Assembly: GCA_902500125.1 (NCBI GenBank)
Contig: GCA_902500125.1_4132.1
Source of the DNA: Escherichia coli
GTDB lineage: Bacteria > Pseudomonadota > Gammaproteobacteria > Enterobacterales > Enterobacteriaceae
DNA length: 64,000 bases
Strand: one strand, 5' to 3'
This document shows, piece after piece, positions 6,354-49,008 of this stretch; within the stretch, counting starts at the first letter, position 1; every line of letters starts with the position of its first letter. The position numbers and the translations under genes are program-made. The notes beneath the pieces are model-generated. The model ran no database searches. It saw only the letters and a program-made list of their open reading frames with translations, and had not been told where the DNA came from.

Positions 6354-6572
6354 ATGAAATTTATTGATTTTGATATTTCTAAGGCCAAAGAATTATTTGT
6401 AAGAAATGAAGTTTATGATATCATGTTACATAACGGCACTGTACAAGAAGATGTTGTGTTGTTTTCGTTTGATGGTGAAAATCTCGAAACTATATATAAA
6501 TTCAGCAACTTAGATGGTGACTTTTGGGAAACCAGTGCTGTTAAAATGTATAGAATTAAAAAGGAGCATTAA
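6354..6572 (+). CDS. hypothetical small protein
   Basis: track ORF 6336..6572 trimmed to ATG after AGGAGG RBS. Confidence 0.5.
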   Translation: MKFIDFDISKAKELFVRNEVYDIMLHNGTVQEDVVLFSFDGENLETIYKFSNLDGDFWETSAVKMYRIKKEH

Positions 6573-6573
6573 C

Positions 6574-7062
6574 ATGCCAATTCGTGGTGTACCAGAACCA
6601 TTAATGGAAGTTATTAAGCATGTTCGCATTGGAGATCGAGAAGTTAATCTTCGCCGTAATAACATTTATTACTTTAAAACTTCAGAAATGAGTTCTGTAC
6701 AGATTGTCATTGGTACATCTATTAAGATTACTCGTGTACTTGATGGTAGTACTGATTTCGTTGAATATAATGTACTTACTAACAAAGTAATACACACATA
6801 TAAATGGAGTGGGTATAAAACTATTAAGTATGAGTTTGATGTTGCTAGAACTGAAGAAGAACGATTTATGTTAAGTACTATCAATCCAGCAAACTACCCT
6901 GAACTTGATACATTTTTGCTAATTTTAAAACTGTATAATGAAGCAAATGGGAAAGCTAAGGAGTATGATAGAATTATGTATGAACGCAAAAAAGAACGTG
7001 CTCAGAAAAGTTATGATCTTTATGATAACCCATATGTAAAATATAATAAGGGGAGAAAATGA
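6574..7062 (+). CDS. hypothetical protein, EExFQxSTV-motif family
   Basis: track ORF 6514..7062 trimmed to ATG after AAGGAG RBS; TEEERFMLSTINP motif. Confidence 0.55.
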   Translation: MPIRGVPEPLMEVIKHVRIGDREVNLRRNNIYYFKTSEMSSVQIVIGTSIKITRVLDGSTDFVEYNVLTNKVIHTYKWSGYKTIKYEFDVARTEEERFMLSTINPANYPELDTFLLILKLYNEANGKAKEYDRIMYERKKERAQKSYDLYDNPYVKYNKGRK

Positions 7063-7463
7063 ATAACGAAGTTCAAATTATCATAACTCCACCTATACAA
7101 AGTCTTGATGTATCTATTAGTGATTTTTTAGAAAAATATTATGAATGGTTTAATAATGATAATACCATTTATAATCATTCATTACCAGATGGTTTCGTGG
7201 AGCTTATCGAATTAAATTCAAAATCACTATACTTCTGTGTTGAATACAATGATTATATGACAGATGAAGCTTATCGCTTTCGTTGTACATTGTATCCGAA
7301 TTATTTTTCAATAGGTTATAAAGATTACCAGTACTGTACCACTAACTATAGTGTTGAGGAAGAATTTCAGTACAATTTACTTTATCCTGATTTAGATTAT
7401 ACGATTGCAGTACTGTTGACTAAAATCATGGATTTTTATAAAGATAAATATAATGCAGCCTAA
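7059..7463 (+). CDS. hypothetical protein, EExFQxSTV-motif family
   Basis: track ORF; VEEEFQYNLLYP motif; ATGA overlap upstream. Confidence 0.55.
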   Translation: MNNEVQIIITPPIQSLDVSISDFLEKYYEWFNNDNTIYNHSLPDGFVELIELNSKSLYFCVEYNDYMTDEAYRFRCTLYPNYFSIGYKDYQYCTTNYSVEEEFQYNLLYPDLDYTIAVLLTKIMDFYKDKYNAA

Positions 7464-7638
7464 GACATTTGATGAGTGGTTTAATCTACACTATAATATA
7501 AATGCAGCAGATATATACTATTTTAAGCTTGAATTGTATATATCATTGCGTAACCCAATTGAGTACTATAACAACATTATCAATTGTGATGATTTTGGTA
7601 CATATTTTAGTATAGCCGTTATGGATATTAAGAGATGA
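7453..7638 (+). CDS. hypothetical small protein
   Basis: track ORF; overlaps neighbours. Confidence 0.4.
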   Translation: MQPKTFDEWFNLHYNINAADIYYFKLELYISLRNPIEYYNNIINCDDFGTYFSIAVMDIKR

Positions 7639-7814
7639 CACATGAAGAATGGATGGCAATGATGAAAAAACGTTATGACCAGTTTGGAAATGGATTTATT
7701 GATGGTCATTTCGATATTTTACGAGACAAATATAAGTTCGAATCATATGTACTAGATGAGAATGGAAATCGTTGGTTCATCTATGAGCTTGCGGTTAGAG
7801 ACAAAAAAATATAA
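7635..7814 (+). CDS. MTHEEWM-family mini-protein (59 aa)
   Basis: own translation from ATG overlapping upstream stop; MTHEEWMAMMKKRYDQFGNG..; paralogous to 7893, 8412, 9400, 9561, 9722. Confidence 0.55.
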   Translation: MTHEEWMAMMKKRYDQFGNGFIDGHFDILRDKYKFESYVLDENGNRWFIYELAVRDKKI

Positions 7815-7892
7815 TAACCTTTTCCATTGTCCATTGCAATGCTTTCTTTACAGAAGAATAAATGAAACACTTAATTGAACTGGATACATAAA

Positions 7893-8069
7893 ATGACACA
7901 TGAAGAATGGATAGAGTCACTAAAATATAAACATGATCATTTTGGATTTGGTATACGCCAAGGCCATTATGATGTTTTGAACGATAAAAAAACGTTCGAA
8001 TCATTGGTTTTGGACGAAGATTCCAACCACTGGTTCATCTACGAGCTTGCTATTAGAGATAAAAAATAG
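7893..8069 (+). CDS. MTHEEWM-family mini-protein
   Basis: track ORF 7875..8069 trimmed to conserved MTHEEW start. Confidence 0.55.
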   Translation: MTHEEWIESLKYKHDHFGFGIRQGHYDVLNDKKTFESLVLDEDSNHWFIYELAIRDKK

Positions 8070-8074
8070 TAAGA

Positions 8075-8410
<336 letters not shown>

Positions 8411-8411
8411 A

Positions 8412-8594
8412 ATGACACACGAAGAATGGATGTCCAAACAGCATAAAGAACATGACTGCTTTGGGAATGGCATTCGTCAGGTACATTATGATATATTAAG
8501 AGATGAAAATCTTTTCAGGTCATATGTTTTGGATACCAGAAAACCCTGGTTTATATGCGAACTGGCATTTAGAAAGTCAAATAATCAAAACTAA
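8412..8594 (+). CDS. MTHEEWM-family mini-protein
   Basis: track ORF 8394..8594 trimmed to MTHEEW start; upstream DNA near-identical to that before 7893. Confidence 0.55.
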   Translation: MTHEEWMSKQHKEHDCFGNGIRQVHYDILRDENLFRSYVLDTRKPWFICELAFRKSNNQN

Positions 8595-8610
8595 ACAAGG
8601 AATACAAAAA

Positions 8611-8829
8611 ATGGAAACAACTTTATTTGAAGTTATTCAATCATTAAAACCTGAAGATGAGGTTCAAGTACTACTACATGGTTATCGTGTAAAAGGTACT
8701 GTGGTTTTAGTCAATGATACAACATTGGTTATTACAGAAACAAACCCATATGATAGTAATCAACTTGCCAATATCCATATCGATATCACTGGAATTATTG
8801 GTGTCGGTGTATCTAAAACACTTGCATAA
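8611..8829 (+). CDS. hypothetical small protein
   Basis: track ORF 8503..8829 trimmed to ATG (METTLFEV) downstream of the previous gene. Confidence 0.45.
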   Translation: METTLFEVIQSLKPEDEVQVLLHGYRVKGTVVLVNDTTLVITETNPYDSNQLANIHIDITGIIGVGVSKTLA

Positions 8830-8882
8830 ATCATTAATTCATTATATAATGATTATCACTGGTTCTAGATGAGGATAATATT

Positions 8883-9155
8883 ATGCATTTTGAAAAATTC
8901 AACGTAAATCGTAACACACGCATTGAAGTTCTTTATGAAACTCAAGACACCATTAGTATTCGTACAAGTAGTGGGGATGTATATCATGACTGTACGATTG
9001 GCTGGGAACAGGGAAGAACGCGTAGTGCAGTATTTGATAATTATCGCTTTTATCAAGGAGACACTACGATTTGGCCTGAATACGTAGAAGATATTGCGTT
9101 TGAAGATGAACATAAAGATGAATTTATCAAATTTAATCCTCAAACTGAATCATAA
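8883..9155 (+). CDS. hypothetical protein
   Basis: track ORF; RBS GAGGA upstream. Confidence 0.55.
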   Translation: MHFEKFNVNRNTRIEVLYETQDTISIRTSSGDVYHDCTIGWEQGRTRSAVFDNYRFYQGDTTIWPEYVEDIAFEDEHKDEFIKFNPQTES

Positions 9156-9172
9156 ATAATGGGACATCACAT

Positions 9173-9288
<116 letters not shown>

Positions 9289-9292
9289 AAAT

Positions 9293-9394
<102 letters not shown>

Positions 9395-9399
9395 AAACC

Positions 9400-9560
<161 letters not shown>

Positions 9561-9564
<4 letters not shown>

Positions 9565-9721
9565 CACATGAAGAATGGATGAATGACATTAATTTTAGAT
9601 ATTCGGGTATCGGTAGATGGCTAAAGTATCATTGGGAATTCATTTCAGAGCCACATATGTATGATAAACTTATCAACGATCCAGCATATGAAATGTACTT
9701 AATTGAACTACTGGTACGAAT

Positions 9722-9725
<4 letters not shown>
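9561..9725 (+). CDS. MTHEEWM-family mini-protein (54 aa)
   Basis: own translation; ATGA overlap with previous paralog; near-duplicate of 9400. Confidence 0.5.
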
Positions 9726-9894
<169 letters not shown>

Positions 9895-9897
9895 AAG

Positions 9898-10311
<414 letters not shown>

Positions 10312-10368
10312 CTAAATAATTCAGTACTGAGGATATTAATATGTTTAAAGATGAACGTCCAGATTTGT

Positions 10369-10406
<38 letters not shown>

Positions 10407-10414
10407 GAATTCCA

Positions 10415-10750
10415 CAATCAGACGTATATGGTGTAAGTTACGTCGATGCAATCCAGAACAAGATCTCTGGTACTCTAGGAAGTGGTGAATGTTAACCTAG
10501 ACGGGTTTGATAATTGGACGATAGGCAATTATTACTTGACTAGCAGGTTTAAACTAGAGGTGACAGTCCTTCATCAAACTGGAAAACCGGATGGACTTTT
10601 ATTTAAAAGGGTAAGGCGTGGAAATATGTTTACAGAAGTTGCTTTTAGTAGCCTGTACGCCCCACGTCAAGGTAGCCGAAAGGTAAGTTAAAACGGGTGG
10701 TTATAAAGCTGAATTGACAGCGACGTTTAAAAGCGTCACCATCCATTTTT
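10415..10750 (+). ncRNA. candidate structured ncRNA of unknown class
   Basis: ~330 nt between promoter and T8 run; GC-richer than flanks; GNRA-like CCGAAAGG hairpin; only ORF has no convincing start. Confidence 0.35.
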
Positions 10751-10769
10751 TTTAATTAAAGTTGGTGAT

Positions 10770-11159
<390 letters not shown>

Positions 11160-11184
11160 TTTTCAGTACTGATATAATTAATTT

Positions 11185-11421
<237 letters not shown>

Positions 11422-11428
11422 CTAAATC

Positions 11429-11733
11429 GGGCCATTAGCTCACGGTGGTTAGAGCAAACGACTCATCGACAATGGTGACTTTCATCAGTAATGGTGATTG
11501 AAAAACTGGATGAATTCAGGGAAATCTTAACACGTAATGGTGATGACAATCCTGAGCCAAGCCCAATAAGCGTATTGGGAAGGTGCAGAGACTAGATGGT
11601 ACAGTACGATCTTACTGTGTAATACATCATTAGCGTCCGGCATCCCTATGGGATGATGATATAGTCCGTACTATAGTGAAAACTATAGATTATACGAATC
11701 GTTAGGTACTGTGTTCGACTCACAGATGGCTCA
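11429..11733 (+). tRNA. tRNA with CAT anticodon (Met or Ile2) interrupted by group I intron
   Basis: 5' half GGGCCAT-TA-GCTC..GAGC-A-AACGA-CTCAT; 3' half AA-TCGTT-AGGTA-CTGTG-TTCGACT-CACAG-ATGGCTC-A; all four stems pair only after removing ~230 nt from the anticodon loop. Confidence 0.7.
11467..11696 (+). ncRNA. group I intron in tRNA anticodon loop (no ORF)
   Basis: follows exon U, ends in G; core-like elements AATTCAGGGAAA (P), AATCCTGAGC (Q), CAGAGACTA (R), GATATAGTCC (S) with complementary P4/P7 strands. Confidence 0.65.
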
Positions 11734-11752
11734 CAAACTTTGAAATAAAATA

Positions 11753-12457
11753 ATGAAAATAAAATTAGAATATCCATACAGTAATGATTGGGAGAATGGG
11801 TATATACAGATAAACCCTGAAGGTAGAAGAACTGTAATACTTTATAATTCTCCAACTGATAGAAGCAGTACTCAATATGCCAGATATCTATTAGCAGTAC
11901 AAGAAGGTAGATATTTAACTGAGTCTGAAGAAGCAGACCACATTGATAATGATTTCACAAATGATGATTTGTCAAATTTGCAAATACTTCATGTTGATGA
12001 ACATCGTTATAAAACACATAAGAATGGTGTGCAAGCACGATATGATTCATTTGTATGTGCTTGTTGTAATATGGAATTTACCCGTAGGCATACTAAAGTG
12101 AAATCATATACAAAATATTGTAGTGTTGAGTGTTCACAAAAAATGGTCAAGCCTCCTTCTAATACAAAGGGTGGTGAAACATCTGTTGATTATGAAAAGG
12201 TAAAAGAATATATTAACCAAGGTTTATTAGATACTGAAATTGCTAAAATAATGAATATTAGTTCAGGTTCAGTACTGAATTATAGAACCAAAAATAATAT
12301 ACCATCTAAGAAATTTGCAAACGTAAAACGTTTAGAAGATAACATAGAAGATATCAAACAACGTTTGAATAATGGTGAGAAAAAAGTTAGTATATATGAA
12401 AGTTATGGTGCTTCCAAAAATGTGTTTGCTAGATTTTTGAAAAGACATGGCTTATAA
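11753..12457 (+). CDS. HNH homing endonuclease-like protein
   Basis: track ORF; EADHIDNDFTNDDLSNLQILHVDEHRYKTH HNH-type motif plus Cys-rich KYCSVECS; immediately downstream of intron-containing tRNA. Confidence 0.65.
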   Translation: MKIKLEYPYSNDWENGYIQINPEGRRTVILYNSPTDRSSTQYARYLLAVQEGRYLTESEEADHIDNDFTNDDLSNLQILHVDEHRYKTHKNGVQARYDSFVCACCNMEFTRRHTKVKSYTKYCSVECSQKMVKPPSNTKGGETSVDYEKVKEYINQGLLDTEIAKIMNISSGSVLNYRTKNNIPSKKFANVKRLEDNIEDIKQRLNNGEKKVSIYESYGASKNVFARFLKRHGL

Positions 12458-12465
12458 ATAATTAT

Positions 12466-12538
12466 GACTCTGTAGCACAATAGGTGGTGCGATTAACTGT
12501 TAATTAATTGGTTGGGGATTCGAGTTCCTCCAGAGTCG
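12466..12538 (+). tRNA. tRNA-Asn (anticodon GTT)
   Basis: acceptor GACTCTG/CAGAGTC, D-stem GCAC/GTGC, anticodon stem ATTAA/TTAAT with loop CTGTTAA, T-loop TTCGAGT. Confidence 0.8.
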
Positions 12539-12560
12539 CAAAAAACAACGAGAGGTATAC

Positions 12561-12818
<258 letters not shown>

Positions 12819-12826
12819 GAATTTAA

Positions 12827-13228
12827 ATGAAAAAGAATGACTTGATCAAAATGCTTCAAGAGATTGACGGCAATCCAGAGATTGTTATTTGGAATGGATA
12901 TGTCGATGATTATATGAACATCGAAAAAGGCTTGACTAAAATCACTCTAGTCAAAGAAACTGAACAGTTCCTTCTGGAAGCATTAGTGCACGAATGGTGC
13001 AAACGTAACAATACATTCGACATTCCAGAAGATCAACGAACTAAGATTGCAGAACAAGCTAAAAAACTTCATAAGAAACGTGAATACGATTTCCAGAACC
13101 CACATGTTACTGAAGACGAATTCAATCACTGGTACGGTAAAAAGAAATTGACAAAGTATGTCCTTTCACCTAAACTACGTGGTAAGACTTCACTTGGTGT
13201 ATTCAACGCCGCAGACTTAAACTACTAG
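12827..13228 (+). CDS. hypothetical protein (paralog of 13241..13456)
   Basis: track ORF; N-terminus similar to next ORF (DLIKxLQ..PE..I...DDY). Confidence 0.55.
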   Translation: MKKNDLIKMLQEIDGNPEIVIWNGYVDDYMNIEKGLTKITLVKETEQFLLEALVHEWCKRNNTFDIPEDQRTKIAEQAKKLHKKREYDFQNPHVTEDEFNHWYGKKKLTKYVLSPKLRGKTSLGVFNAADLNY

Positions 13229-13237
13229 CGGGTATTA

Positions 13238-13642
<405 letters not shown>

Positions 13643-13661
13643 AGAGGTACTTCGAGTATGC

Positions 13662-13787
<126 letters not shown>

Positions 13788-13789
13788 TA

Positions 13790-13876
<87 letters not shown>

Positions 13877-13931
13877 GACTGCCAAACAGCTTGAAGTACT
13901 TTGTAGTGCTGCACCTATGCCGACACTTGGC

Positions 13932-14041
<110 letters not shown>

Positions 14042-14045
14042 ATCT

Positions 14046-14116
14046 GGTTGATTAGTTAAATGGTATAACACGGATCTTGTAAGTCTGAGTCATTAGTTCG
14101 ATTCTAATATTGACCA
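14046..14116 (+). tRNA. tRNA-Thr (anticodon TGT)
   Basis: acceptor GGTTGAT/ATTGACC (two G-U), D-stem GTTA/TAAC, anticodon stem CGGAT/GTCTG with loop CTTGTAA, T-arm ATTAG-TTCGATT-CTAAT. Confidence 0.65.
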
Positions 14117-14181
14117 CAAATATATTCTTAGAAATAACATTTTTCTTGAAAATAAATACTCCATACTATATGGAGAACTAT

Positions 14182-39282: not shown

Positions 39283-39312
39283 GGTTGACTTCGGTCAACC
39301 TTTATATATAAT
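39283..39312 (+). terminator. terminator/promoter module (GGTTGACTTCGGTCAACC)
   Basis: hairpin with TTGACT in stem; TATAAT 16 bp downstream. Confidence 0.55.
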
Positions 39313-39883
39313 GGAAGAAATAAACATGGAACGTTGGAAATTAATTCCTGATTATGACTATTCAATTTCTGATCATGGAAGAGTAAGAAACGAACAAACT
39401 GGATATATAAGTTGTGGATTTAAAAATAAAGATGGGTATGTGAAGGTCGATTTGTATCGCAATTCTGTGAAAAATAGAAAGGCGATTCATCGACTAGTAG
39501 CTGAAGCATTTTTACCACCACCCACACAGAAACAGTTACAGTGGGCGAGTAGAACAAAGAAAAAAGTTGTTCACATAAACCATAAAGATTGTAATAGAAG
39601 TAACAATCACTATTTGAATTTGGAATGGAACACAGCATCTGAAAACGTACTATATTCTTATTCACATGGTAACGCAACAACTAATCGTGGTGCTGCTGTG
39701 TTGACATGGGAAATTGTAAGAGAAATAAGAAAAGATTATAATGATAATTATAATGATGTGATAGAATATGCACGAGAAAATTGTAATAAATACCGTGTAT
39801 GTAAAAAAAACAATACGTCGTATTTTATACAATCAAACATGGATAGAGGATTAAAAATATGCCACAAGATAATGGGGATATGA
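39311..39883 (+). CDS. HNH homing endonuclease-like protein
   Basis: track ORF; N-terminal W..IPDYDYSISDHGRVRN and AIHRLVAEAF motifs typical of phage HNH/NUMOD-type endonucleases (recall-based). Confidence 0.55.
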   Translation: MEEINMERWKLIPDYDYSISDHGRVRNEQTGYISCGFKNKDGYVKVDLYRNSVKNRKAIHRLVAEAFLPPPTQKQLQWASRTKKKVVHINHKDCNRSNNHYLNLEWNTASENVLYSYSHGNATTNRGAAVLTWEIVREIRKDYNDNYNDVIEYARENCNKYRVCKKNNTSYFIQSNMDRGLKICHKIMGI

Positions 39884-41118
39884 AACATCGTAATGGTGGA
39901 CTAGTACAACACTCGGATAAATGGGCCGACCGAAATCGTCGCAAAAATAGTTATCAAGCAGGACAAGGTTCACGTGGTTCCAGAAACCAAGGAACGGGAC
40001 TTGCTGGTAAGGCAAACGCAGAAGCAGGTGAAGTTAAGAGTACTGAGAACATGACTGAGCTAGAAAAGCTACGTTATGTTAATTCATTGGGACTTCTTAA
40101 TGCTACACAAAAACAACGTCTAGCTGATATGGAACGTGAAGAAAAAGAAAAGTCTGCTCCTGCGAAAGAAGAACCAAAACAAGAAGCACCAAAGGCGGTT
40201 AACCCTGTCAAAGAACTGTCTGATAAGTTAGGTAAGATTTTTGCTAATAAACCACAACTTATCCAAGGTATTGTGAAAGAATTGCAATCTGTACCTAAAG
40301 AAGAATTAAAAGTCAAAGCACAAGCTGTACTTGATGCAATGAGTGGAAATACCAGTACTGAACCAACTGAAGTATTCAGTACTATAATGCGTGCACTTGA
40401 AGGTACGCAACAAGGTGATGTGCCTGCACAAGAGGAAGTAAGTCTTGAAAGCGTACTTAAAACATTTGATAGTATTGGTAAAGAAGACCGTGCTAATGCT
40501 CAACAAGTTAAGAATGTACTAGCTAAGTTAGAAAACCGTCTGGAAGGTAAAGACGATAAGATTAAATTAGTATCTGATGCAGTTAACGATGCACTTAAAT
40601 CTTATGTACAAGGTGAAAAGAGTCGTTTTGTAACTGCAATGGATGCTGCATTCAATACTATGAAAAAGTATGAAGCTGATCATGGTGAGAAGGTTACACG
40701 AGATGGTTATCTGATGCGTGATGATGAAGAAGGTGCAGTAGAACAGAATGATGTTCATTCAGACGAAGAAATTGATGACATGGAAGCTGAACTGTCACAA
40801 GACCGCCAAATGACTGAAAAATCCCATAACGAACTACAGAAATTAATGCAATGGGTTGCAGATGTTGGTGAAAAAGCTGGTGCTGATAAGAAGAGTATAA
40901 ACCGAAATCTTAGTTGGATTAAAGATAAAGTTGGTAACAACGCTCGTAAACTACAAAAAGCGTGGACTGATGTAGTGAATGGTGCTGTTGACATTGATGT
41001 TGAATCCGGTGAGGCATATGATTATGCATTGACTACACTTGATGACTCTTTCCGTGATTACGAAAATGGAAATGTAACTCCTTGGGAAAAGGATATCATG
41101 AGCAAATACGGTAAATGA
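39859..41118 (+). CDS. hypothetical charged protein (419 aa)
   Basis: track ORF; Gly/Ser/Arg-rich N-terminus then K/E-rich region; paralogous segment to 38130 ORF. Confidence 0.6.
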   Translation: MPQDNGDMKHRNGGLVQHSDKWADRNRRKNSYQAGQGSRGSRNQGTGLAGKANAEAGEVKSTENMTELEKLRYVNSLGLLNATQKQRLADMEREEKEKSAPAKEEPKQEAPKAVNPVKELSDKLGKIFANKPQLIQGIVKELQSVPKEELKVKAQAVLDAMSGNTSTEPTEVFSTIMRALEGTQQGDVPAQEEVSLESVLKTFDSIGKEDRANAQQVKNVLAKLENRLEGKDDKIKLVSDAVNDALKSYVQGEKSRFVTAMDAAFNTMKKYEADHGEKVTRDGYLMRDDEEGAVEQNDVHSDEEIDDMEAELSQDRQMTEKSHNELQKLMQWVADVGEKAGADKKSINRNLSWIKDKVGNNARKLQKAWTDVVNGAVDIDVESGEAYDYALTTLDDSFRDYENGNVTPWEKDIMSKYGK

Positions 41119-41127
41119 TAAAACAAA

Positions 41128-41158
41128 AGGTTGACTTCGGTCAGCCTTTTTTGTTATG
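41128..41158 (+). terminator. terminator/promoter module (GGTTGACTTCGGTCAGCC plus T6)
   Basis: identical hairpin to 35280 copy; TATGAT 18 bp after TTGACT. Confidence 0.6.
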
Positions 41159-41188
41159 ATGTTGGTATTAACTACAGAGGATAAAGTA

Positions 41189-41830
41189 ATGACTAAGCAA
41201 GACATATTCAAAACTTTAATTGACATTTTGCGTCCATCAAAAACTCGTTGTGCGATGGAGTTTGATATTCCTTATGCTGAACGCGTAATCTTTCCACAAG
41301 TTAAAGCTGCTGGACTTACTTTGCTTGGAATGGGGATGTACTCTGTAGTAGTTGAACATAAAAACTATCCTGGACGTGCATTTAAAGTAACCACTTCACG
41401 CTGGGATGGTTTTCGTGCTTATGCAAAGTACTGCATTGAAAACGCAGGAACCAAGTTTCTTCCAGTGATCTACAGTGCCAACGAACAAGGAAACTTTGGA
41501 TGGTATGAGATGGACAAGTACTATCCTATAATTAAACAAAAAAATAATTATGATGACTTTGTTAGTACTAAAATTGGAGATTTATATTCTTATGCACATG
41601 CTGGTCAGTACGCTACTTCAGTGAATGATATGCGTGGAAATTCTGAAGAGATTGCTATTGCAACGGTCGCTGCTAACATCATGAAAGAGTTTCACGGGCG
41701 TTTTGTACCAGACATTCATTCAAGTAATGTGATGATGGATAAAGATGGCAATGTATTCATTACTGATCCTCTTTCGTGTGATGTACGTAGAGAAATACCA
41801 GTTACTGAAGAAGATCCAGTTTTTTATTGA
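41189..41830 (+). CDS. protein-kinase-like protein (atypical)
   Basis: track ORF 41156..41830 trimmed to ATG after AGAGGATAA; Gly-rich loop LGMGMYSVV, AFKV lysine, catalytic-loop-like DIHSSNVMMDKDGNVFITDP. Confidence 0.45.
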   Translation: MTKQDIFKTLIDILRPSKTRCAMEFDIPYAERVIFPQVKAAGLTLLGMGMYSVVVEHKNYPGRAFKVTTSRWDGFRAYAKYCIENAGTKFLPVIYSANEQGNFGWYEMDKYYPIIKQKNNYDDFVSTKIGDLYSYAHAGQYATSVNDMRGNSEEIAIATVAANIMKEFHGRFVPDIHSSNVMMDKDGNVFITDPLSCDVRREIPVTEEDPVFY

Positions 41831-41891
41831 CAGAACTGATGTTCTGGTGTATTCTTAATAAACCATAAAAATTGCGGTAAAGGATAAAATC

Positions 41892-42173
41892 ATGCGTTCA
41901 TTTGAAAACTTAATAGGTAAGCATCTTTTATCTGAAATTGATGCAGACGTTAAAGAATTATCCAAATCAAAAAGTTACATTCATTTGGATGAACTGTTTA
42001 TTAAGTACGGTGAGATTGGTTTTAAGTCATTATTTGTTTTTACTATGAAAGTACATAGTTTAAAGTACTTCGATTTGAGTTCTAAAGATGGTGAACCGAA
42101 TCTATATTACATGTATTACCTTAAGAACAAAGATGAAGCTAATACATTACTCTCTGAATATATATTGGGGTAA
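41892..42173 (+). CDS. hypothetical protein
   Basis: track ORF; RBS AAAGGATAA. Confidence 0.55.
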   Translation: MRSFENLIGKHLLSEIDADVKELSKSKSYIHLDELFIKYGEIGFKSLFVFTMKVHSLKYFDLSSKDGEPNLYYMYYLKNKDEANTLLSEYILG

Positions 42174-42175
42174 AA

Positions 42176-42514
42176 ATGGAACAATATTTTGAATTAATAA
42201 ACAAAGTATCATTTTATGTAGTATCTTTGGTTTGGGTGTATTATATGTTTTGCTATATTATTGCATTCTTCCGATATACTACTTTATATGAACGTATCTA
42301 CTATGATGCCCCAATTTCATTCTTGATGTTTTGTGCATGTACGTGGGGAATATTAGAAGTACTGATATGTGGGTATAGTACTGATGAATTAAATCTGGTA
42401 TCGGTGTTGACTGGGTTTTCATTTGTTGTTATGATAGCTGCCGTTCCAGTATGGTTGTTCTTTGGACTAGTTCATCGCATTGATATATGGCGTTCTAATA
42501 TCCCTGAAAAGTAA
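42176..42514 (+). CDS. 3-TM small membrane protein, paralog family A
   Basis: track ORF; 3 hydrophobic helices; C-terminal basic tail ..RSNIPEK. Confidence 0.55.
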   Translation: MEQYFELINKVSFYVVSLVWVYYMFCYIIAFFRYTTLYERIYYDAPISFLMFCACTWGILEVLICGYSTDELNLVSVLTGFSFVVMIAAVPVWLFFGLVHRIDIWRSNIPEK

Positions 42515-42517
42515 GGA

Positions 42518-42865
42518 TTGGAAATGATTTATTACACTAACATGTTTGCCTATGCTGTTGCTTGCATTTACATTGTTTACTTCTTATTCGGTGGAGTACT
42601 GTGCTTCTTTAAGTACAAAACGTTGTTCAACCGAATGTACCCAAATCATCCAATTGTAGTTGTACTTTTGATTCTTTCAGTTTCTCAAATAATCGTTGAA
42701 ACTACAATGGGTATCAGTAGTGTACATTATAGTTTTGGCACTATAGTAATTATTACTATGCTTATTGCATACATTTTAGTACTTGGATATGGTATCTTTG
42801 GTAATATTGGTATGAAAATGTATCATCGAATTAAAACATTACGTGATAATCTACCGGAGCGTTGA
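42518..42865 (+). CDS. 3-TM small membrane protein, paralog family A
   Basis: track ORF; C-terminal ..LRDNLPER. Confidence 0.55.
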   Translation: MEMIYYTNMFAYAVACIYIVYFLFGGVLCFFKYKTLFNRMYPNHPIVVVLLILSVSQIIVETTMGISSVHYSFGTIVIITMLIAYILVLGYGIFGNIGMKMYHRIKTLRDNLPER

Positions 42866-42866
42866 T

Positions 42867-43211
42867 ATGTATAATTTGAACCTAATCTCATATATTATAA
42901 CAACACTGTTTACATTCTATGCCTTTGTTGGTATAATCCTACTGTACTTTAAATTTTATAAAGTGTTTAACCGTTTCTATCCTTCAATGGAGAATGAGTT
43001 TTTCTTTGTGTTGTACGTAGGTTACACATTAATGGCTACATGTTTCACTGTAGCCGATGGTGTCATCGGCATTAAAACTGATTCCCCAAATGGTAGTACG
43101 CTGGTTGCATTTATTCTTACTGGATTCCTTGCAACTTATATTGCCTTCATTACAACATGGTCAGTGGTTGAATTTCTCTTGCGACTACGAAAGAATATGC
43201 CGAATCGATAG
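42867..43211 (+). CDS. 3-TM small membrane protein, paralog family A
   Basis: track ORF 42843..43211 trimmed to ATG (MYNLNL); C-terminal ..LRKNMPNR. Confidence 0.55.
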   Translation: MYNLNLISYIITTLFTFYAFVGIILLYFKFYKVFNRFYPSMENEFFFVLYVGYTLMATCFTVADGVIGIKTDSPNGSTLVAFILTGFLATYIAFITTWSVVEFLLRLRKNMPNR

Positions 43212-43220
43212 GAGACATAT

Positions 43221-43475
43221 ATGTTTGCGTTGCGTAATAAAAACACTAAAGAATTATTATGTATTGATACCGTATGGGATTGTGCGGGATCAACTACAGT
43301 TCTTGAAGAAGGAACTGGATATTGCGTGTTTGTTGTTCATGATAGGAATGAACTCGAATTATTACTTGCTGAGTTCAATGCTGGTGGTAATCCTAACAGT
43401 ACTGAATACCCTGAGATTATCAATCCAGCACCACCAGGCTCTTATGAAATTCTACAACTGTGGGAGTTGAAGTAA
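43221..43475 (+). CDS. hypothetical small protein
   Basis: track ORF; RBS AGGAGA. Confidence 0.55.
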   Translation: MFALRNKNTKELLCIDTVWDCAGSTTVLEEGTGYCVFVVHDRNELELLLAEFNAGGNPNSTEYPEIINPAPPGSYEILQLWELK

Positions 43476-43855
43476 TGCGTCAAATGCACAAAGTAACCGA
43501 GCTAAACAAGCGTCTGGTTAAACAATCAATGTTCGAGGATAAAGAGTCTTATTATAACTTTAAACGTGCTGTAGAGGCTGCTATCCACATTCAGAAGCTT
43601 AAAGAACGTGGTTGTATTATTCTGGAAAATGGGTCGGAAGTTGTAACGGATGACTTTAGTGTAGCGTTTGATGTTTCACCTGACGGGACGCTATCAATGC
43701 CCCGCTTAGGAACTGGAAACATGACTGTTTGGGTTGGCTTCACTATGGGGAATGTACCTGGTACTGTGTACGTAGATGATGCGGAATTGAAAGACAGTTT
43801 CAAAAACTTATCTTATCTTGAACCACAATACGCACATGAAATGAATTTATTTTGA
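43475..43855 (+). CDS. hypothetical protein
   Basis: track ORF 43460..43855 trimmed to ATG (MRQMHK). Confidence 0.5.
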   Translation: MRQMHKVTELNKRLVKQSMFEDKESYYNFKRAVEAAIHIQKLKERGCIILENGSEVVTDDFSVAFDVSPDGTLSMPRLGTGNMTVWVGFTMGNVPGTVYVDDAELKDSFKNLSYLEPQYAHEMNLF

Positions 43856-43857
43856 GT

Positions 43858-43885
43858 TGACAAACACATTCAGTACTGTATAATG
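43858..43885 (+). promoter_or_regulatory. sigma70-type promoter TTGACAAACACATTCAGTACTGTATAATG
   Basis: consensus hexamers, TG-extended -10, CAGTACTG in spacer. Confidence 0.6.
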
Positions 43886-43931
43886 CTTATCAAGGGGATG
43901 AACTTCTCATCCCTACAATCGAGGAACTACC

Positions 43932-44486
43932 ATGATTACTTTTAAGAAAACTGCTAACCACATCCATGAAATCTACATTAACGGTCACAAAGCTGGCCTT
44001 CTTCGTTTACTCGCCCATCATCCTGATGTTACCGTATCTGATAATGAACCTAAAGATTGGCGTGTATTTTTCTTTGGAAAGTACAGTGATTTTCAAGTAT
44101 CAAACCTGAAGAACATTCGTTCAGTATGCACGTTAACTGAAATTAAAGAAAAGTTAGAAAAAGCATTGAAAACTAATCCAGATGGTGTTCTTCCACCTGA
44201 TAACTTTGTAGAGAAAGGTTATGCATTAGCTCATTTCAAAGATGGTACTATTCAATCTATCAGTACTGAATATGAATATCAATGGACTGAGTACTTCACT
44301 TATGGATCGCGTAATACATTGATGGCTTCACGTAGTAAATTGGAAGAAGTACTGACTCGTATGAATGAACGCGAACGTCAATTTTATGACAAACCAGAAA
44401 TGTGGAGTTCAACTTACATTGACCGTATTGACTATGTTATTATGACTCCAATCTTTGACACTGCTTACTATGATTCTTTGAAATAA
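43932..44486 (+). CDS. hypothetical protein
   Basis: track ORF; RBS GAGGAA. Confidence 0.55.
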   Translation: MITFKKTANHIHEIYINGHKAGLLRLLAHHPDVTVSDNEPKDWRVFFFGKYSDFQVSNLKNIRSVCTLTEIKEKLEKALKTNPDGVLPPDNFVEKGYALAHFKDGTIQSISTEYEYQWTEYFTYGSRNTLMASRSKLEEVLTRMNERERQFYDKPEMWSSTYIDRIDYVIMTPIFDTAYYDSLK

Positions 44487-44702
44487 GGATAACTTATATG
44501 AAACTACGTACTCGTAATCGACTGATGGATGCACTGTACCATGAACAGCTTTCACTGAATGAAGTGAAGCGACAGTTAATGTACACATATCTGTTACCCG
44601 ATCGCATTGCAAAACAACGTGCTAAAGAATTGCTGAAAGAAGCAATCGAGTACTGGGAATCTGATTCGTACTAATTGTCACGTTAATTAAGTGAGGCGAT
44701 AA

Positions 44703-44954
44703 ATGAAAATTTTATTAGTTCTAATACTACTAATTGTTTTACCATTTACGTTAGTATCCCCTGAACTTGCATGGAATGTGTTTGTGTACTTAGTATGTAC
44801 TATTGTAGTAAATGGTATCTTGTTCTTAGTTCTATTCATAAATGGAATAGGACACGGTGGAGGATGGACCAGTACTGCTGATATTGTACATAAAACCACT
44901 ATGTCTTTATTTGTAATGTGGAATTTATTCTGGACTTGGTTTGTGTTCTTCTAA
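44703..44954 (+). CDS. small membrane protein
   Basis: track ORF; hydrophobic throughout. Confidence 0.5.
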   Translation: MKILLVLILLIVLPFTLVSPELAWNVFVYLVCTIVVNGILFLVLFINGIGHGGGWTSTADIVHKTTMSLFVMWNLFWTWFVFF

Positions 44955-44962
44955 TTAAAAAT

Positions 44963-45334
44963 ATGAATATAGATTTGAAAGGTGCAACCCGAACTGTCAT
45001 ACTCATTGGGGAATATGCTATCAAGATTCCAACCTTTAAAAGTTGGAAGCTATTCTTAACAGGGATGATAGCTAACCTCAATGAACGTTCGTGGATGCAG
45101 TACTCCAATCGTAGTGATAGTAGTATCTGTCCTACGTTGTGGTCATCATGTACTGGACTAGTAACTGTACAGAAACGTTGTAAGCCAGTGCAACATAGGG
45201 GTTTATTTTGGGTGGAGTTGTGTGCTTTAGCATTGAATTCAGAGTTAAGTACTGACTTCTTCTATTCAGATGCGAAGCCAGAAAACTTTGGGTATCTGTG
45301 TGGTAAGTTGGTTAAACTTGATTATGGAGATTAA
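44963..45334 (+). CDS. mini protein-kinase-like protein (atypical)
   Basis: track ORF 44918..45334 trimmed to ATG (MNIDLKG); GATRTVILIGEYAIKIP, SDAKPENFGY and KLDYGD resemble kinase G-loop/VAIK, catalytic loop and DFG. Confidence 0.4.
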   Translation: MNIDLKGATRTVILIGEYAIKIPTFKSWKLFLTGMIANLNERSWMQYSNRSDSSICPTLWSSCTGLVTVQKRCKPVQHRGLFWVELCALALNSELSTDFFYSDAKPENFGYLCGKLVKLDYGD

Positions 45335-45335
45335 T

Positions 45336-45605
45336 ATGTACGCATTGTATAATAAAGAAAAGAAACGATTTGCTAAGGTTGAAATTTCGATTGATACATT
45401 TGACATGTTGGAGTACTGTATTGTAACGGACTTATATGCTAACTTGTATTACGTTCTTGATGACGTATCAGTACTGCAACGATTGCTTGAGAATTCCAAA
45501 AGTCAATGCCAGGACATCCATGATGGTTCATCTTATGAAACACCTGAGTGTCCCCACGGGCAACTCGATGGGTATGAGATTGTTAAGTTGGGAATTGTTG
45601 AGTAA
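45336..45605 (+). CDS. hypothetical protein
   Basis: track ORF 45270..45605 trimmed to ATG after GGAGA RBS. Confidence 0.5.
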   Translation: MYALYNKEKKRFAKVEISIDTFDMLEYCIVTDLYANLYYVLDDVSVLQRLLENSKSQCQDIHDGSSYETPECPHGQLDGYEIVKLGIVE

Positions 45606-45670
45606 AAGGTATTGACACCGTACTCATTTAACTGTATTATGTATGTACACCAACTAATGAGGAATCGGAA

Positions 45671-46030
45671 ATGGCATCTTTATCTGAAATCACTGAACTG
45701 AATCCACTGGTAATTAGTACTGTTCAACGCACCAAGACGTTTTACTTCCGTCCTGCTGATGGATGGAAACGTGGAATGAATGGTGACTATCGAGTACTGG
45801 AAGATTCGCTCATCGAGCGTATCAACTCTGAACTACAGAAGTATGAAGGTGTTAAAGTTGTCCGTTCAACTTCTCGTTATTTTGAGTACTACATTGAGTC
45901 TTCAACTGTAAATGAAAACTCATCATTCTCGGTGGATAACACTGATATTCTTCGCAATGCAGTTGGTTTGCTATGCAACATTGCAGAAGAAATGGGATTA
46001 ACTATCACCACAATGAGTGAGTTAGAATAG
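45671..46030 (+). CDS. hypothetical protein
   Basis: track ORF; RBS GAGGAA. Confidence 0.55.
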   Translation: MASLSEITELNPLVISTVQRTKTFYFRPADGWKRGMNGDYRVLEDSLIERINSELQKYEGVKVVRSTSRYFEYYIESSTVNENSSFSVDNTDILRNAVGLLCNIAEEMGLTITTMSELE

Positions 46031-46041
46031 AATAAAAAAAG

Positions 46042-46072
46042 GGTTGACTTAGGTCGGCCCTTTTGCTATTAT
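46042..46072 (+). terminator. terminator/promoter module (GGTTGACTTAGGTCGGCC variant)
   Basis: hairpin plus T-rich tail; TATTAT 17 bp after TTGACT. Confidence 0.5.
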
Positions 46073-46100
46073 ATCTATATCGAAACGAAGGAGACAAACC

Positions 46101-46874
46101 ATGACCCGTCAAGAGAAAGCAATCCAAATCGAAAAAAACTTCAATAGCATGATGGCTGCACTGGAATGCCTTCTTGATACACAAGCTAACTCTATCAACT
46201 CTCTGATCGTATCAGGTAAAGGTGGTGTTGGTAAAACTTATAACGTTGACCAACGGTTGCAGAAAGCTGATGATAACTTTGAAATCGACTACAAGAAAAT
46301 CAGTGGTAAAGTAACTACTTTGGGTCTGTACGAAGCACTGTATCGTTCACGTCATGCCGCATCAGTACTGTTACTTGATGACGTTGATATCTTCTCTGAC
46401 GAGACTAATATTGATTTGCTTAAAGCTGTGTTGGATACGTCAGAGAAGCGTGTAGTTTCTTACGCGACTTCTGCTAAGTACCTGGAACAGCAGGGTATCC
46501 CTAAGCAGTTTGAATTCCGTGGTAAAGTAATCTTTCTGACTAACAAAAACCTGTCACAGATTGCTAAAGGTAAAAGCAGCTTAGCACCACACATCGATGC
46601 ACTGATCACTCGTAGTATCTTTGTTGACCTGCAACTGTTCACCAACGAAGAAGTGATGATTCACATTGAGAACATCATGAACAAAACTAACATCCTTGAA
46701 AACAATGGTGTTAACAAAAATGGTTGTAAAGCAATCCTGAATTGGATGCTGAACAACGAAGAACGTTTGCGTAGTCCATCACTGCGTATGCCAGTACTGA
46801 TCGCTGGTTTGTATAATAAATTCCCATACGATTGGGAATCAATGGCAGAGAATATGTTCCTTGAGAAAATTTAA
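46101..46874 (+). CDS. P-loop NTPase
   Basis: track ORF; Walker A SGKGGVGKT and Walker-B-like VLLLDDVD; RBS AAGGAGA. Confidence 0.6.
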   Translation: MTRQEKAIQIEKNFNSMMAALECLLDTQANSINSLIVSGKGGVGKTYNVDQRLQKADDNFEIDYKKISGKVTTLGLYEALYRSRHAASVLLLDDVDIFSDETNIDLLKAVLDTSEKRVVSYATSAKYLEQQGIPKQFEFRGKVIFLTNKNLSQIAKGKSSLAPHIDALITRSIFVDLQLFTNEEVMIHIENIMNKTNILENNGVNKNGCKAILNWMLNNEERLRSPSLRMPVLIAGLYNKFPYDWESMAENMFLEKI

Positions 46875-46941: not shown

Positions 46942-47280
46942 ATGCTTGAGTTTTTTAATTCAGATACAATGATTAGTATTACTTTGATTTATCTGTTTGG
47001 TTTTTTCTTTTATCATGCACTGGTTGTAGTACTGTGGTATTTTAAAAAGAAAATTGTTTTTAAACTGTATCCAGTAAGGAATTCATCACTAGTTCTTTAC
47101 ACACTAGTTCAAGGTTTGTTTGCAATTGTTGGTCTTATGGCACACTTAATTTATTGTGCCAATCCTCACTTGAACTCAATCTCACAATATATTGTATTCT
47201 TTGGGTTGTTCATTTGGTTAGTTGTATACTTAATCCATCTCATTATTCATGGTAGAGATAAAATTCGCGGAGACTTCTAA
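46942..47280 (+). CDS. 3-TM small membrane protein, paralog family B
   Basis: track ORF; first of 7 tandem overlapping paralogs with hydrophobic core and basic C-tail. Confidence 0.55.
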   Translation: MLEFFNSDTMISITLIYLFGFFFYHALVVVLWYFKKKIVFKLYPVRNSSLVLYTLVQGLFAIVGLMAHLIYCANPHLNSISQYIVFFGLFIWLVVYLIHLIIHGRDKIRGDF

Positions 47281-47627
47281 TGTTTGAAGCTTATCTTGAG
47301 TTTTTAAGGAGTAGTTCAGTTGCACATTCACTTGCAGGGATTATTCTAACAACTTATGTATCATTTTGGGTAGTTATGTTTCTAGGATGGTATTTTAAAC
47401 GACAATTCTATAAACGTAATGGTGAAGATTTTATGAATTCTGCCATTAATCAATCGTTGTTTGCATCAACATTGATTGCATGTATTGTAGCAACACTCAC
47501 AGGAAAGGTACTACCAGCTTTTTCCGCAGTTTACGGCACACTTGGGATGATATGTTTAACTTTTATATTGACCATTAAAATTTGTTGTGTTATGATTGAA
47601 CTTCGAAATAAGATACCGGAGGAATGA
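47280..47627 (+). CDS. 3-TM small membrane protein, paralog family B
   Basis: track ORF; C-terminal ..LRNKIPEE resembles family A tails. Confidence 0.55.
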   Translation: MFEAYLEFLRSSSVAHSLAGIILTTYVSFWVVMFLGWYFKRQFYKRNGEDFMNSAINQSLFASTLIACIVATLTGKVLPAFSAVYGTLGMICLTFILTIKICCVMIELRNKIPEE

Positions 47628-47962
47628 TGGAGTACTTTATTGATTTACTGCCGTGGTATATGAAAGTTAGTACCATGTACTATATTATTAGTGCTGGATT
47701 CTACTTTCTGATGTGGTTCTTTAAACGACCAATTTCAGTATTCATCGCTGATAACATGCTGCAATTAAAATTACACGCATGGTTTGGTATGGCGATGATT
47801 ATGCCTATTATTCACTACTCAATGATTAGTAGAGGTTTCCGTTCTAATGGTGAACCAATTGTATTAGTATTCTATTGGGGTTCAACTATTGCATATGTAA
47901 GTTTGTTGTTGTTCCCAGTCGTTCATAAGTTACGTGCTAAAGTTCCTGATGCGAGGTACTAA
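47624..47962 (+). CDS. 3-TM small membrane protein, paralog family B
   Basis: track ORF; C-terminal ..LRAKVPDARY. Confidence 0.55.
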   Translation: MMEYFIDLLPWYMKVSTMYYIISAGFYFLMWFFKRPISVFIADNMLQLKLHAWFGMAMIMPIIHYSMISRGFRSNGEPIVLVFYWGSTIAYVSLLLFPVVHKLRAKVPDARY

Positions 47963-48276
47963 TGGATATAGTAACATTGATTTACACGTTGTATTCATTC
48001 TATTTCATTATGTGTTGGGTTGGATTTTTATTTGTACTCAAGATGTTTGATTATGTTGAAAAACAGATAAAAGAATTTTGTATTCCTTTTATCGGTTCAA
48101 CCATTATTAGTGTTTCTTGTGTGTATTTTTTGGTTTTTGATCCACCAGATAACACTGCAATGATTGACTTGATGTTACTACCAACAACTGTTACTTTTTT
48201 ATGTAGTCTGATGCCGCCGATTAGCCGTGGACTAACAGAATTTAGACGCAATCAAAAGCGTAAACGAGGGATGTAA
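47962..48276 (+). CDS. 3-TM small membrane protein, paralog family B
   Basis: track ORF; C-terminal ..RRNQKRKRGM. Confidence 0.55.
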   Translation: MDIVTLIYTLYSFYFIMCWVGFLFVLKMFDYVEKQIKEFCIPFIGSTIISVSCVYFLVFDPPDNTAMIDLMLLPTTVTFLCSLMPPISRGLTEFRRNQKRKRGM

Positions 48277-48644
48277 TGGAAATTGCTCTTATTATCTTAA
48301 CTGCTATGCTGTTTATTAGTACTGTGGTTATAATTGGTAAATTCTTTTGTGTATCATTTTTAGAAACGGTATACGATGAAATTGCTGATGATTATGAATT
48401 ACAAGCCGGATTTTTCATTACGTATTGGCTTAGTTTATTTTGTCTAGTCATTGCTTGGATTTTACATATCTTTAAATGGGGTATGGTAGACGGTGATCCT
48501 ATTATGGCAATTATTGTTCTAGTGTTTGGTATCCTTGGTGGTGCAGTGCATAATCTAATGGTTATCTGGCAAACTGTTCAATATGTTTTGGTTCCCTATT
48601 TCGAAAAGATGCACAGTACAATTAAAAAACGTAAACGAGGTTAG
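48276..48644 (+). CDS. 3-TM small membrane protein, paralog family B
   Basis: track ORF; C-terminal ..IKKRKRG. Confidence 0.55.
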   Translation: MEIALIILTAMLFISTVVIIGKFFCVSFLETVYDEIADDYELQAGFFITYWLSLFCLVIAWILHIFKWGMVDGDPIMAIIVLVFGILGGAVHNLMVIWQTVQYVLVPYFEKMHSTIKKRKRG

Positions 48645-48645
48645 T

Positions 48646-49008
48646 ATGAACGGGATAGAATTATCTTTCGTTGGTCAATTACTAGTAATGGCGTATACAT
48701 TTATCTTCTCACTGAATGCATTCGTGTGCATTGGGAAGTACTTCCATAAGCGACCATTATCAAATATATATGATGTAATCCAAAAGAGATATAGTCCAGC
48801 ATATACTGTGTTGGGTACAGTATTCAATTTTGGTTTTATTGTATTAATAATTGGACTGTTCACATCCTCTTTGAATACAATAACCTTCGGTCTTATGATA
48901 TGTTCATTGGTATTAGCCGTAATTATATGTTGTTTAGTACTGCACCTTGTGGTACTATTGTATATAAAGATCTCTGAAATCCACCAACGTTTGGGTATGA
49001 GGAAATAA
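48646..49008 (+). CDS. 3-TM small membrane protein, paralog family B
   Basis: track ORF 48583..49008 trimmed to ATG (MNGIELSF). Confidence 0.5.
   Translation: MNGIELSFVGQLLVMAYTFIFSLNAFVCIGKYFHKRPLSNIYDVIQKRYSPAYTVLGTVFNFGFIVLIIGLFTSSLNTITFGLMICSLVLAVIICCLVLHLVVLLYIKISEIHQRLGMRK

Follow-up and report, generated by a model that had tools for sequence, protein, structure and literature searches.

T7 gp0.7 (T7K), the protein kinase of phage T7, phosphorylates indiscriminately and, according to recent work, thereby disarms several defence systems (PMC13645617). Its purified fragment 1-242 is highly active with no motif preference, and its DFG-like motif DPV lies at 213-215 (PMC13645617). The active fragment ends 27 residues past this motif, which makes a kinase without a C-lobe plausible. 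For the effector kinase SteC, constructs without αF and αG fold well, and the minimal domain that is active in vitro includes part of the minimal C-lobe (10.1101/2025.03.01.640964). Here we analyse a stretch of 64,000 nucleotides (the window) from the Escherichia coli assembly GCA_902500125.1, contig GCA_902500125.1_4132.1, in which an earlier note had pointed out two atypical kinase-like open reading frames (ORFs) and a P-loop NTPase. All three, ORF A (41189..41830), ORF B (44963..45334) and ORF C (46101..46874), are present on the plus strand. The main finding concerns ORF B. This protein of 123 residues is a Hanks-type kinase core made of subdomains I-VII only, a new architectural variant of the protein kinase fold, and it belongs to a very large, unstudied family.

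A 6-kb query around these genes is 95-97% identical to Asteriusvirus jumbo coliphages including CRJP21, phAPEC6, G17, Sharanji and 121Q, and the DNA identity to CRJP21, phAPEC6, G17 and 121Q is 96-97%. The window is that of an Asteriusvirus, a 121Q/G17-like jumbo coliphage. In 121Q, the counterpart of ORF A is gp205 ('protein kinase'), while those of ORF B and ORF C, gp215 and gp223, are hypothetical proteins.

The minimal protein-kinase-like core of ORF B runs MNIDLKGATR...AIK...DAKPEN...DYGD, with the stop codon one residue after DYG. It comprises a Gly-rich loop (G7-x-T-R10), the β3 lysine K21, the αC glutamate E41, a non-RD catalytic loop (S-D103-A-K105-P-E-N108) and D120-Y-G122. The Gly-rich loop, the lysine, the D-x-K-x-x-N segment and DYGD are exactly as the earlier note had described them. 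An activation segment with its APE motif, αF-αI and subdomains VIII-XI are all missing. The spacings between K21 and E41, D103 and N108, and D103 and D120 are 20, 5 and 17 residues, respectively; the equivalent spacings in PKA are 19, 5 and 18. The AlphaFold2 (AF2) model of ORF B has a predicted local distance difference test (pLDDT) score of 89.5 and shows a bilobal kinase fold, with a five-stranded N-lobe plus αC and a C-lobe core containing the catalytic loop and β7-β8. ORF B is shorter than every solved kinase-fold chain among its top 60 structural matches, which bears out the suggestion that it would be an unusually small kinase fold. OspG is found among its structural matches.

ORF B matches PHROG 4301, a family of function unknown, at E 5e-43. 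Its 14 close homologues are all 118-127 residues long, and G7, K21, E41, D103, K105, N108, D120 and G122 are invariant in them. When 1.84 billion cluster representatives were searched with a profile, 1,204 clusters matched at E <= 1e-3 and 638 of them at E <= 1e-10, almost all being 110-130 residues long; the family thus holds at least 1,204 clusters at 50% identity. We aligned 158 representatives of 50%-identity clusters, and the motif conservation among them is far beyond chance. K21 and E41 are present in all 158, G7, R10 and D120 in 156 each, and the loop lysine K105 in 135. The catalytic Asp position is occupied by Asp in 101 and Glu in 55 representatives, and the loop Asn position by Asn in 106 and Ser in 47. 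These two positions covary: 100 representatives have D..N and 45 have E..S, with only eight mixed combinations (six E..N, one D..S, one K..S) and five other rare states. The E..S state is associated with Ala instead of Lys two residues before the Asp of DYG. Two clades or a compensated active-site variant would explain the coupled states. The eight commonest residues preceding the catalytic Asp are S, V, A, Y, D, I, L and C, Arg not being among them, and such a non-RD loop fits the lack of an activation loop. The truncated architecture is that of the family as well: its median length is 123 residues, and 133 of the 158 representatives terminate at most three residues from DYG. No Pfam domain is found in the extensions of the longer members.

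The relationship to known kinases is barely visible to sequence searches. Curated models run against 145 family members gave only three weak matches (two to PIP49_C, one to ABC1), and ORF B itself matches no Pfam kinase model. A PDB sequence search with ORF B alone or with a 14-sequence profile gave nothing relevant. With a profile of 145 sequences, 22 TTK sequences in the PDB are matched at E 0.009-0.025, in exact catalytic register (HSDLKPAN/DFG). Family hidden Markov models detect no second copy of the ORF B or ORF C family among the 587 six-frame ORFs of the window. We found no described phage mini-kinase family in the literature, the coverage of which was incomplete and does not prove absence.

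Members of the ORF B family are found in 114 phage records. The carriers include jumbo Asteriusviruses, large phages of Aeromonas, Erwinia, Klebsiella and Ralstonia, T4-like phages, a Felix-like phage and siphophages of Pseudomonas and Xanthomonas. Two Erwinia records already label the family member a kinase. In Salmonella lambdoid prophages (loci L040 and L041, 6001-6372), a member of 123 residues stands alone between an Rz-like lysis cassette and the gene of the terminase small subunit Nu1, which is a classic moron site. Temperate phages thus carry the family too. The neighbours change from one phage to another: in SPJ41 the gene is located between DNA ligase and polymerase, and on one contig a Tad2-like gene is found about 1.5 kb upstream of it. 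In some Salmonella relatives (SD-1_S14 and SD-2_S15; BFVD entries A0A2Z5HG44 and A0A2Z5HGC2) the ORF B gene is shortened or broken up, with pieces of 102, 84 and 38 residues, so it is dispensable in those phages. When three genes per side were clustered at related loci, 21 of 34 of which could be scored, no conserved neighbour was found. ORF B behaves as a mobile accessory gene.

What would such a protein do? ORF B is a stand-alone core made of an N-lobe (β1-β5 and αC) followed by one αE-like helix, the catalytic loop and the Mg-binding DYG, where the chain ends. It keeps all residues that bind ATP and Mg and transfer the γ-phosphate, and lacks the parts that position and select a protein substrate, namely the activation segment, the P+1 loop and αF-αI. 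We infer that ORF B is an active phosphotransferase which is constitutively on. It may be promiscuous, like the truncated T7K kinase domain, or may depend on a host partner for substrate presentation, like OspG, and would serve phages as a portable enzyme for modifying the host or countering its defences. Weighing T7K 1-242 against SteC and OspG, we take an active phosphotransferase that is always 'on' and either poorly selective or directed by a partner as the most likely reading of ORF B, with a probability of about 0.55-0.6. More tentatively, and at somewhat worse than even odds, the family could be the smallest catalytically competent protein kinase known: a constitutive, low-specificity or partner-directed module of about 120 residues, portable between phages and serving takeover or counter-defence. 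The host-takeover or anti-defence role proposed by the earlier note would likewise follow by analogy with T7K.

Several observations weigh against an active kinase. The SteC mapping suggests that a kinase ending at DFG may be inactive on its own. Glu and Ser replace the catalytic Asp and Asn in a third of the family. The nucleotide loop, K-G7-A-T-R10-T-V, has a single Gly and a near-invariant Arg and is not GxGxxG. A single-sequence search with ORF B finds no Pfam, NCBIfam or PADLOC match, and the PDB sequence match of the family profile is marginal (E about 0.01). Early expression would fit the host-type promoters described below, with the timing read from the promoter consensus only.

The first alternative is that ORF B is not autonomous. 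It would then be a nucleotide-binding pseudo-enzyme or decoy, or half a kinase which is activated by a host protein or a second copy supplying the C-lobe functions. The absence of αF speaks for it, since αF anchors both hydrophobic spines in canonical kinases. So does the minimal active domain of SteC, which takes in part of the minimal C-lobe, and so does OspG, a structural match of ORF B which requires E2~ubiquitin as a partner. However, the catalytic Asp/Glu, Lys, Asn/Ser and DYG Asp are near-invariant in at least 158 divergent clusters, which argues for chemistry rather than binding only, and T7K 1-242 is active although just 27 residues follow its DFG equivalent. Moreover, dependence on a partner is compatible with an active phosphotransferase and not opposed to it. 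We consider a non-autonomous ORF B unlikely.

The second alternative is a kinase of nucleic acids or small molecules, which would act on a hydroxyl of RNA, DNA or a metabolite, either as an RNA/tRNA kinase like archaeal Ark1/ArkI or as a 5'-OH polynucleotide kinase for RNA or DNA repair. It draws on gene neighbourhoods. In the T4-like phage JS10 (locus L003, 2477-2845), the mini-kinase gene stands immediately upstream of, and abuts, the RNA ligase gene rnlB; in the T4-like phage G10400 (locus L037, 2501-2881), it is about 1 kb from a tRNA gene cluster. A DNA ligase gene lies at most about 2 kb away in a Felix-like phage and in PaMx11. The proximity to rnlB and the tRNA cluster in T4-like phages could be a hint of an RNA-related substrate or a coincidence. 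Against this reading, ORF B has no conserved neighbour, and nucleic-acid enzymes abound in phage early regions in any case; the copy in lambdoid prophages is placed between lysis and terminase genes. In addition, the D-x-K-P-E-N loop of ORF B has the form of Ser/Thr protein kinases. To our knowledge, the Lys at +2 of the catalytic loop is absent from kinases of the APH, Rio and Bud32 types. A nucleic-acid or metabolite kinase is therefore even less probable than a non-autonomous protein.

A truncated or frameshifted remnant of a full-length kinase, the rest of which would be held by the overlapping ORF 45270..45605 or a downstream gene, is scarcely credible and is refuted by the family architecture: the PHROG 4301 profile does have 225 positions, of which ORF B spans 40-167 only, and an ORF in a different frame does overlap the 3' end of ORF B, but 133 of 158 representatives stop at most three residues from DYG, all 14 close homologues are 118-127 residues long, and the downstream gene, which starts at 45336 behind a Shine-Dalgarno sequence of its own, is a member of another family, PHROG 8563, and is not a conserved neighbour. 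As a missing C-lobe or operon partner, the gene 45336..45605 is ruled out, because no flanking family is common beyond near-identical genomes. The genes 43221..43475 and 45336..45605 have similar N-termini, and blastp gives no support for paralogy between them.

The PHROG 4301 profile is longer than ORF B because of members of about 190 residues, such as gp063 of Sharanji (locus L046, 2027-2611, minus strand, outside the window). This protein of 194 residues is the second PHROG 4301 member of the Asteriusviruses (E 1e-41) and ends about 20 residues after DYG. It scores 17.8 bits against the Pfam Pkinase profile, where the cut-off is 31.7 bits, and covers profile positions 26-152 only. Similar proteins of about 190 residues are found in RaK2 and CBB (BFVD matches). 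The description of Sharanji names gp063 'another protein kinase' and does not mention the orthologue of ORF B (PMC11895373). The types of ORF A, ORF B and gp063 thus make three kinase-like proteins per Asteriusvirus relative. Two kinase-like genes in one phage, as proposed by the earlier note, is right for the window, but its relatives carry three.

The 213-residue product of ORF A is, judged by its sequence, homologous to the T7 protein kinase but consists of the kinase domain only. Its matches are to PHROG 15752 ('protein kinase; inhibitor of host transcription'; E 4.4e-91) and to the T7 kinase family PHROG 2828 (E 7.8e-17). In an hhalign comparison with T7 gp0.7, its profile of 15 homologues gives a probability of 98.5% and E 1.9e-15 over 162 aligned columns. 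The alignment pairs LGMGMY with LGNGHF (which contains T7K G76), FKV with IKV, DIHSSN with DMHSGN, and ITDPL with ITDPV. In the numbering of the 224-residue ORF, the motifs are G58/G60 of the Gly-rich loop, K77 of β3, the catalytic loop D186-x-H-x-x-N191 (D186-I-H-S-S-N191) and D204-P205 as the DFG equivalent. G60, K77, D186, H188, N191, D204 and P205 are invariant in 15 sequences. All kinase motifs listed by the earlier note for ORF A (Gly-rich loop, Lys, catalytic loop and ITDP) are thus present and invariant in the homologues. Its kinase-fold reading of ORFs A and B withstands both points that could have spoken against it: no non-kinase fold is obtained, the catalytic residues are conserved, and ORF A turns out to be a T7 gp0.7 homologue. 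The protein ends 20 residues past D204, and the shut-off (SO)/DNA-binding domain is not present. A jumbophage T7K clade naming G17, in which the SO domain is lost, has been described, and Leu instead of Val is reported as the third DFG-equivalent residue of jumbophage T7K homologues (PMC13645617). The Sharanji orthologue of ORF A has been pointed out as well (PMC11895373). ORF A is thus already known, being annotated in 121Q and discussed in both papers, and the observation is correct but not new. By homology, ORF A would most likely phosphorylate host proteins early in infection, as T7K does.

The start of ORF A deserves a comment. The longest reading frame opens at 41156 and gives 224 residues. 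Fourteen homologues begin at the MTK equivalent to 41189, the ATG at 41156 falls within the -10 hexamer of the ORF A promoter, and a GAGGA Shine-Dalgarno sequence precedes 41189. For these reasons, the start at 41189 given by the earlier note is right, and the annotated 224-residue start at 41156 is wrong. Upstream of ORF A are found an ORF of 190 residues (39311-39883) that looks like a homing endonuclease from a reading of the sequence only, and an acidic, low-complexity ORF of 419 residues (39859-41118). 121Q and CRJP21 diverge from the window upstream of ORF A, the query being matched only from position 105, while in several other relatives the match begins at position 1.

ORF A and ORF C are each preceded by a promoter cassette on the plus strand. 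The cassette before ORF A (41125..41160) consists of a terminator-like hairpin in which the -35 element TTGACT is embedded and an extended -10 element, TGtTATGAT, the promoter spanning 41131-41160. In the cassette before ORF C (46037..46072), -35 TTGACT lies within a stem-loop and is followed by -10 TATTAT (promoter 46044-46072), and the Shine-Dalgarno sequence AAGGAGA of ORF C is located at 46088-46094. The underlying pattern, AAAGGnTTGACTTnGGTC, has seven matches in the window, where shuffling gives 0.46 expected; the plus-strand positions are 12926, 35276, 38517, 39279, 41125 and 46038. It combines a G+C-rich hairpin followed by a T run with -35 TTGACT in the stem-loop and the -10 element downstream. 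It looks like a combined terminator and early promoter bounding single genes or small blocks, and is reminiscent of the promoter-stem-loop cassettes of T4-type phages. The block containing ORF B is headed by a perfect sigma-70 consensus promoter on the plus strand (43857..43884; TTGACA, 16-nt spacer, TATAAT; 12 of 12 matches). The genes of this block, 43932..45605, are tightly packed. Between the promoter and ORF B only weak matches (9-10 of 12) occur, all of them intracoding, the best one being at 45325 in the last codons of ORF B. The 43857 promoter probably drives the whole block, and ORF B would be co-transcribed with it. The earlier note had placed the kinase-like genes and the NTPase among early genes. 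The support for this is indirect: near-consensus sigma-70-type promoters are found in intergenic gaps. The total promoter count in the window is not above the shuffled expectation.

In 121Q and CRJP21, denV (endonuclease V), two small ORFs and a 1.5-kb endonuclease gene are inserted between the homologues of ORF B and ORF C. This denV/homing-endonuclease block spans 6079-9452 in locus L001 and 6079-9248 in locus L002 and is absent from the window at 45606-46100; it is an indel polymorphism among near-identical genomes. A functional link of ORFs A, B and C is rejected, because ORFs A and C have promoter cassettes of their own, the denV block separates ORFs B and C in relatives, and many phages that carry ORF B have neither A nor C. 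With separate promoters, variable spacing in relatives and no conserved neighbour, the three genes do not form one system. As a whole, the locus is probably best explained by three unrelated accessory genes, namely a T7K-type kinase, a minimal kinase core and a small AAA+ ATPase.

ORF C, with 257 residues, is an ordinary, compact AAA+ ATPase. The Walker A motif (VSGKGGVGKT; G39-K-G-G-V-G-K45-T) and Walker B motif (VLLLDDVD; V-L-L-L-D93-D94) noticed earlier are both present, and G42, G44, K45, D93 and D94 are invariant in 31 homologues. Invariant N148 at the end of β4, R171 in ALxTR and R229 in the lid are found at expected sites and, by position only, may be assigned as sensor 1, arginine finger and sensor 2. 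The protein has an AAA+ α/β core with a C-terminal helical lid (residues 182-253), residues 111-141 form an insertion ahead of the putative sensor 1, and the superposition on CbbQ and NorQ extends over about 200 residues. No curated family model exceeds its threshold for ORF C, the best being AAA_16 with 21 bits (cut-off 32.6 bits). Weak matches are found to the NCBIfam models Hda and Orc1/Cdc6 (about 14 bits) and in a PDB profile search (E >= 0.019); the weak sequence matches point to Orc1, Cdc6, DnaI, Hda and TnsC/TniB. Distant, N-terminally extended homologues occur in replication modules, between SSB and PolA or adjoining DnaB and UvsX.

ORF C would be a small AAA+ ATPase that oligomerises, with DNA or a DNA-bound complex as its probable target. 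The weak matches, the homologues in replication modules and the lack of a VWA-type neighbour make a DNA-associated role slightly more likely than that of a MoxR-type chaperone, with low confidence. The alternative to a DNA-associated loader or initiator is a MoxR/CbbQ-type, chaperone-like remodeller that works on a protein complex. The insertion before sensor 1 would fit the pre-sensor-1 hairpin superclade, but no VWA-type partner is adjacent: the immediately flanking genes code for proteins of 119 and 112-122 residues, too short for a VWA domain. Together with the matches to Orc1, Cdc6, DnaI, Hda and TnsC/TniB and the distant homologues inside replication modules, this makes the chaperone-like reading rather unlikely. 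The ORF C locus has two alleles at the same site: ORF C is 98% identical to the CRJP21 protein, 59% to 121Q gp223 and about 60% to the G17 copy, although the genomes are about 96% identical overall. The label 'thioredoxin' on the EJP2 copy is a misannotation.

Genes for small multi-pass membrane proteins (104-141 residues) flank the region in tandem arrays at 42176-43211 and 46942-49008. The first three are paralogues (blastp E 1e-11 to 1e-6), and the six after ORF C show weak similarity only; CRJP21 labels those after ORF C 'regulator of chromosome condensation', which is implausible. Elsewhere in the window, five tRNA genes (Gly-tcc, Ser-tga, Ser-gct, Asn-gtt and Thr-tgt) are found on the plus strand at 8097-14117, and near 50 kb a switch of the coding strand coincides with a change in the sign of the GC skew.

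ORF A, already described, and ORF C, an ordinary ATPase, add little to what is known, and the significance of the locus lies in ORF B. If the proposed activity is true, a natural and widespread kinase of 120 residues would set a new lower size limit for the kinase fold. The regulatory and substrate-binding half of the kinase domain would be dispensable for a biological function, and the family would define the minimal sequence sufficient for kinase chemistry. A second family of phage kinases lacking a C-lobe, unrelated to T7K and far more widespread, would also suggest that phages in general resort to blanket or partner-directed phosphorylation. Furthermore, a domain of this size would be attractive for protein engineering.

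A comparison with known systems shows where the three proteins stand. ORF C shares with MoxR-type CbbQ/NorQ, MCM, Cdc6/Orc1/DnaA and MuB/TnsC the AAA+ core, the helical lid and Walker A and B, together with a putative sensor 1 and arginine finger. It differs from them by DD instead of DE in Walker B, by the lack of an adjacent VWA partner and by the lack of a DNA-binding domain in its short form. ORF A has the same Gly-rich loop, β3 Lys and D-x-H-x-x-N loop as T7K, with D-P replacing DFG, and ends soon after D-P like the active T7K 1-242, whereas it is without the C-terminal shut-off/DNA-binding domain and has DPL instead of DPV.

ORF B resembles T7K in having no C-lobe after DFG, but it has the canonical D-x-K-x-x-N and DYG and is about 90 residues shorter. 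A common origin of ORF A and ORF B finds no support: no profile-profile relationship between them is detected, and they are not recent paralogues. Nor is a sequence relationship of the ORF B family to T7 gp0.7 detected (hhalign E 0.57). OspG/NleH and SteC are type III secretion effectors that work inside eukaryotic cells; they have at least 169 residues, retain C-lobe helices beyond DFG and, in the case of OspG, depend on E2~Ub. In contrast, ORF B is phage-encoded, has 123 residues and ends at DFG+1. Rio1/Rio2, Bud32 and archaeal Ark1/ArkI, to which ORF B has no detected sequence similarity, have catalytic loops without the Ser/Thr-kinase Lys, are 173-270 residues long and keep helices after the metal-binding Asp. 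Compared with the Hanks-type Ser/Thr kinases TTK/Mps1 and PknB, ORF B is without subdomains VIII-XI, has G-x-T-R in place of GxGxxG and a non-RD loop, and falls below every Pfam kinase threshold.

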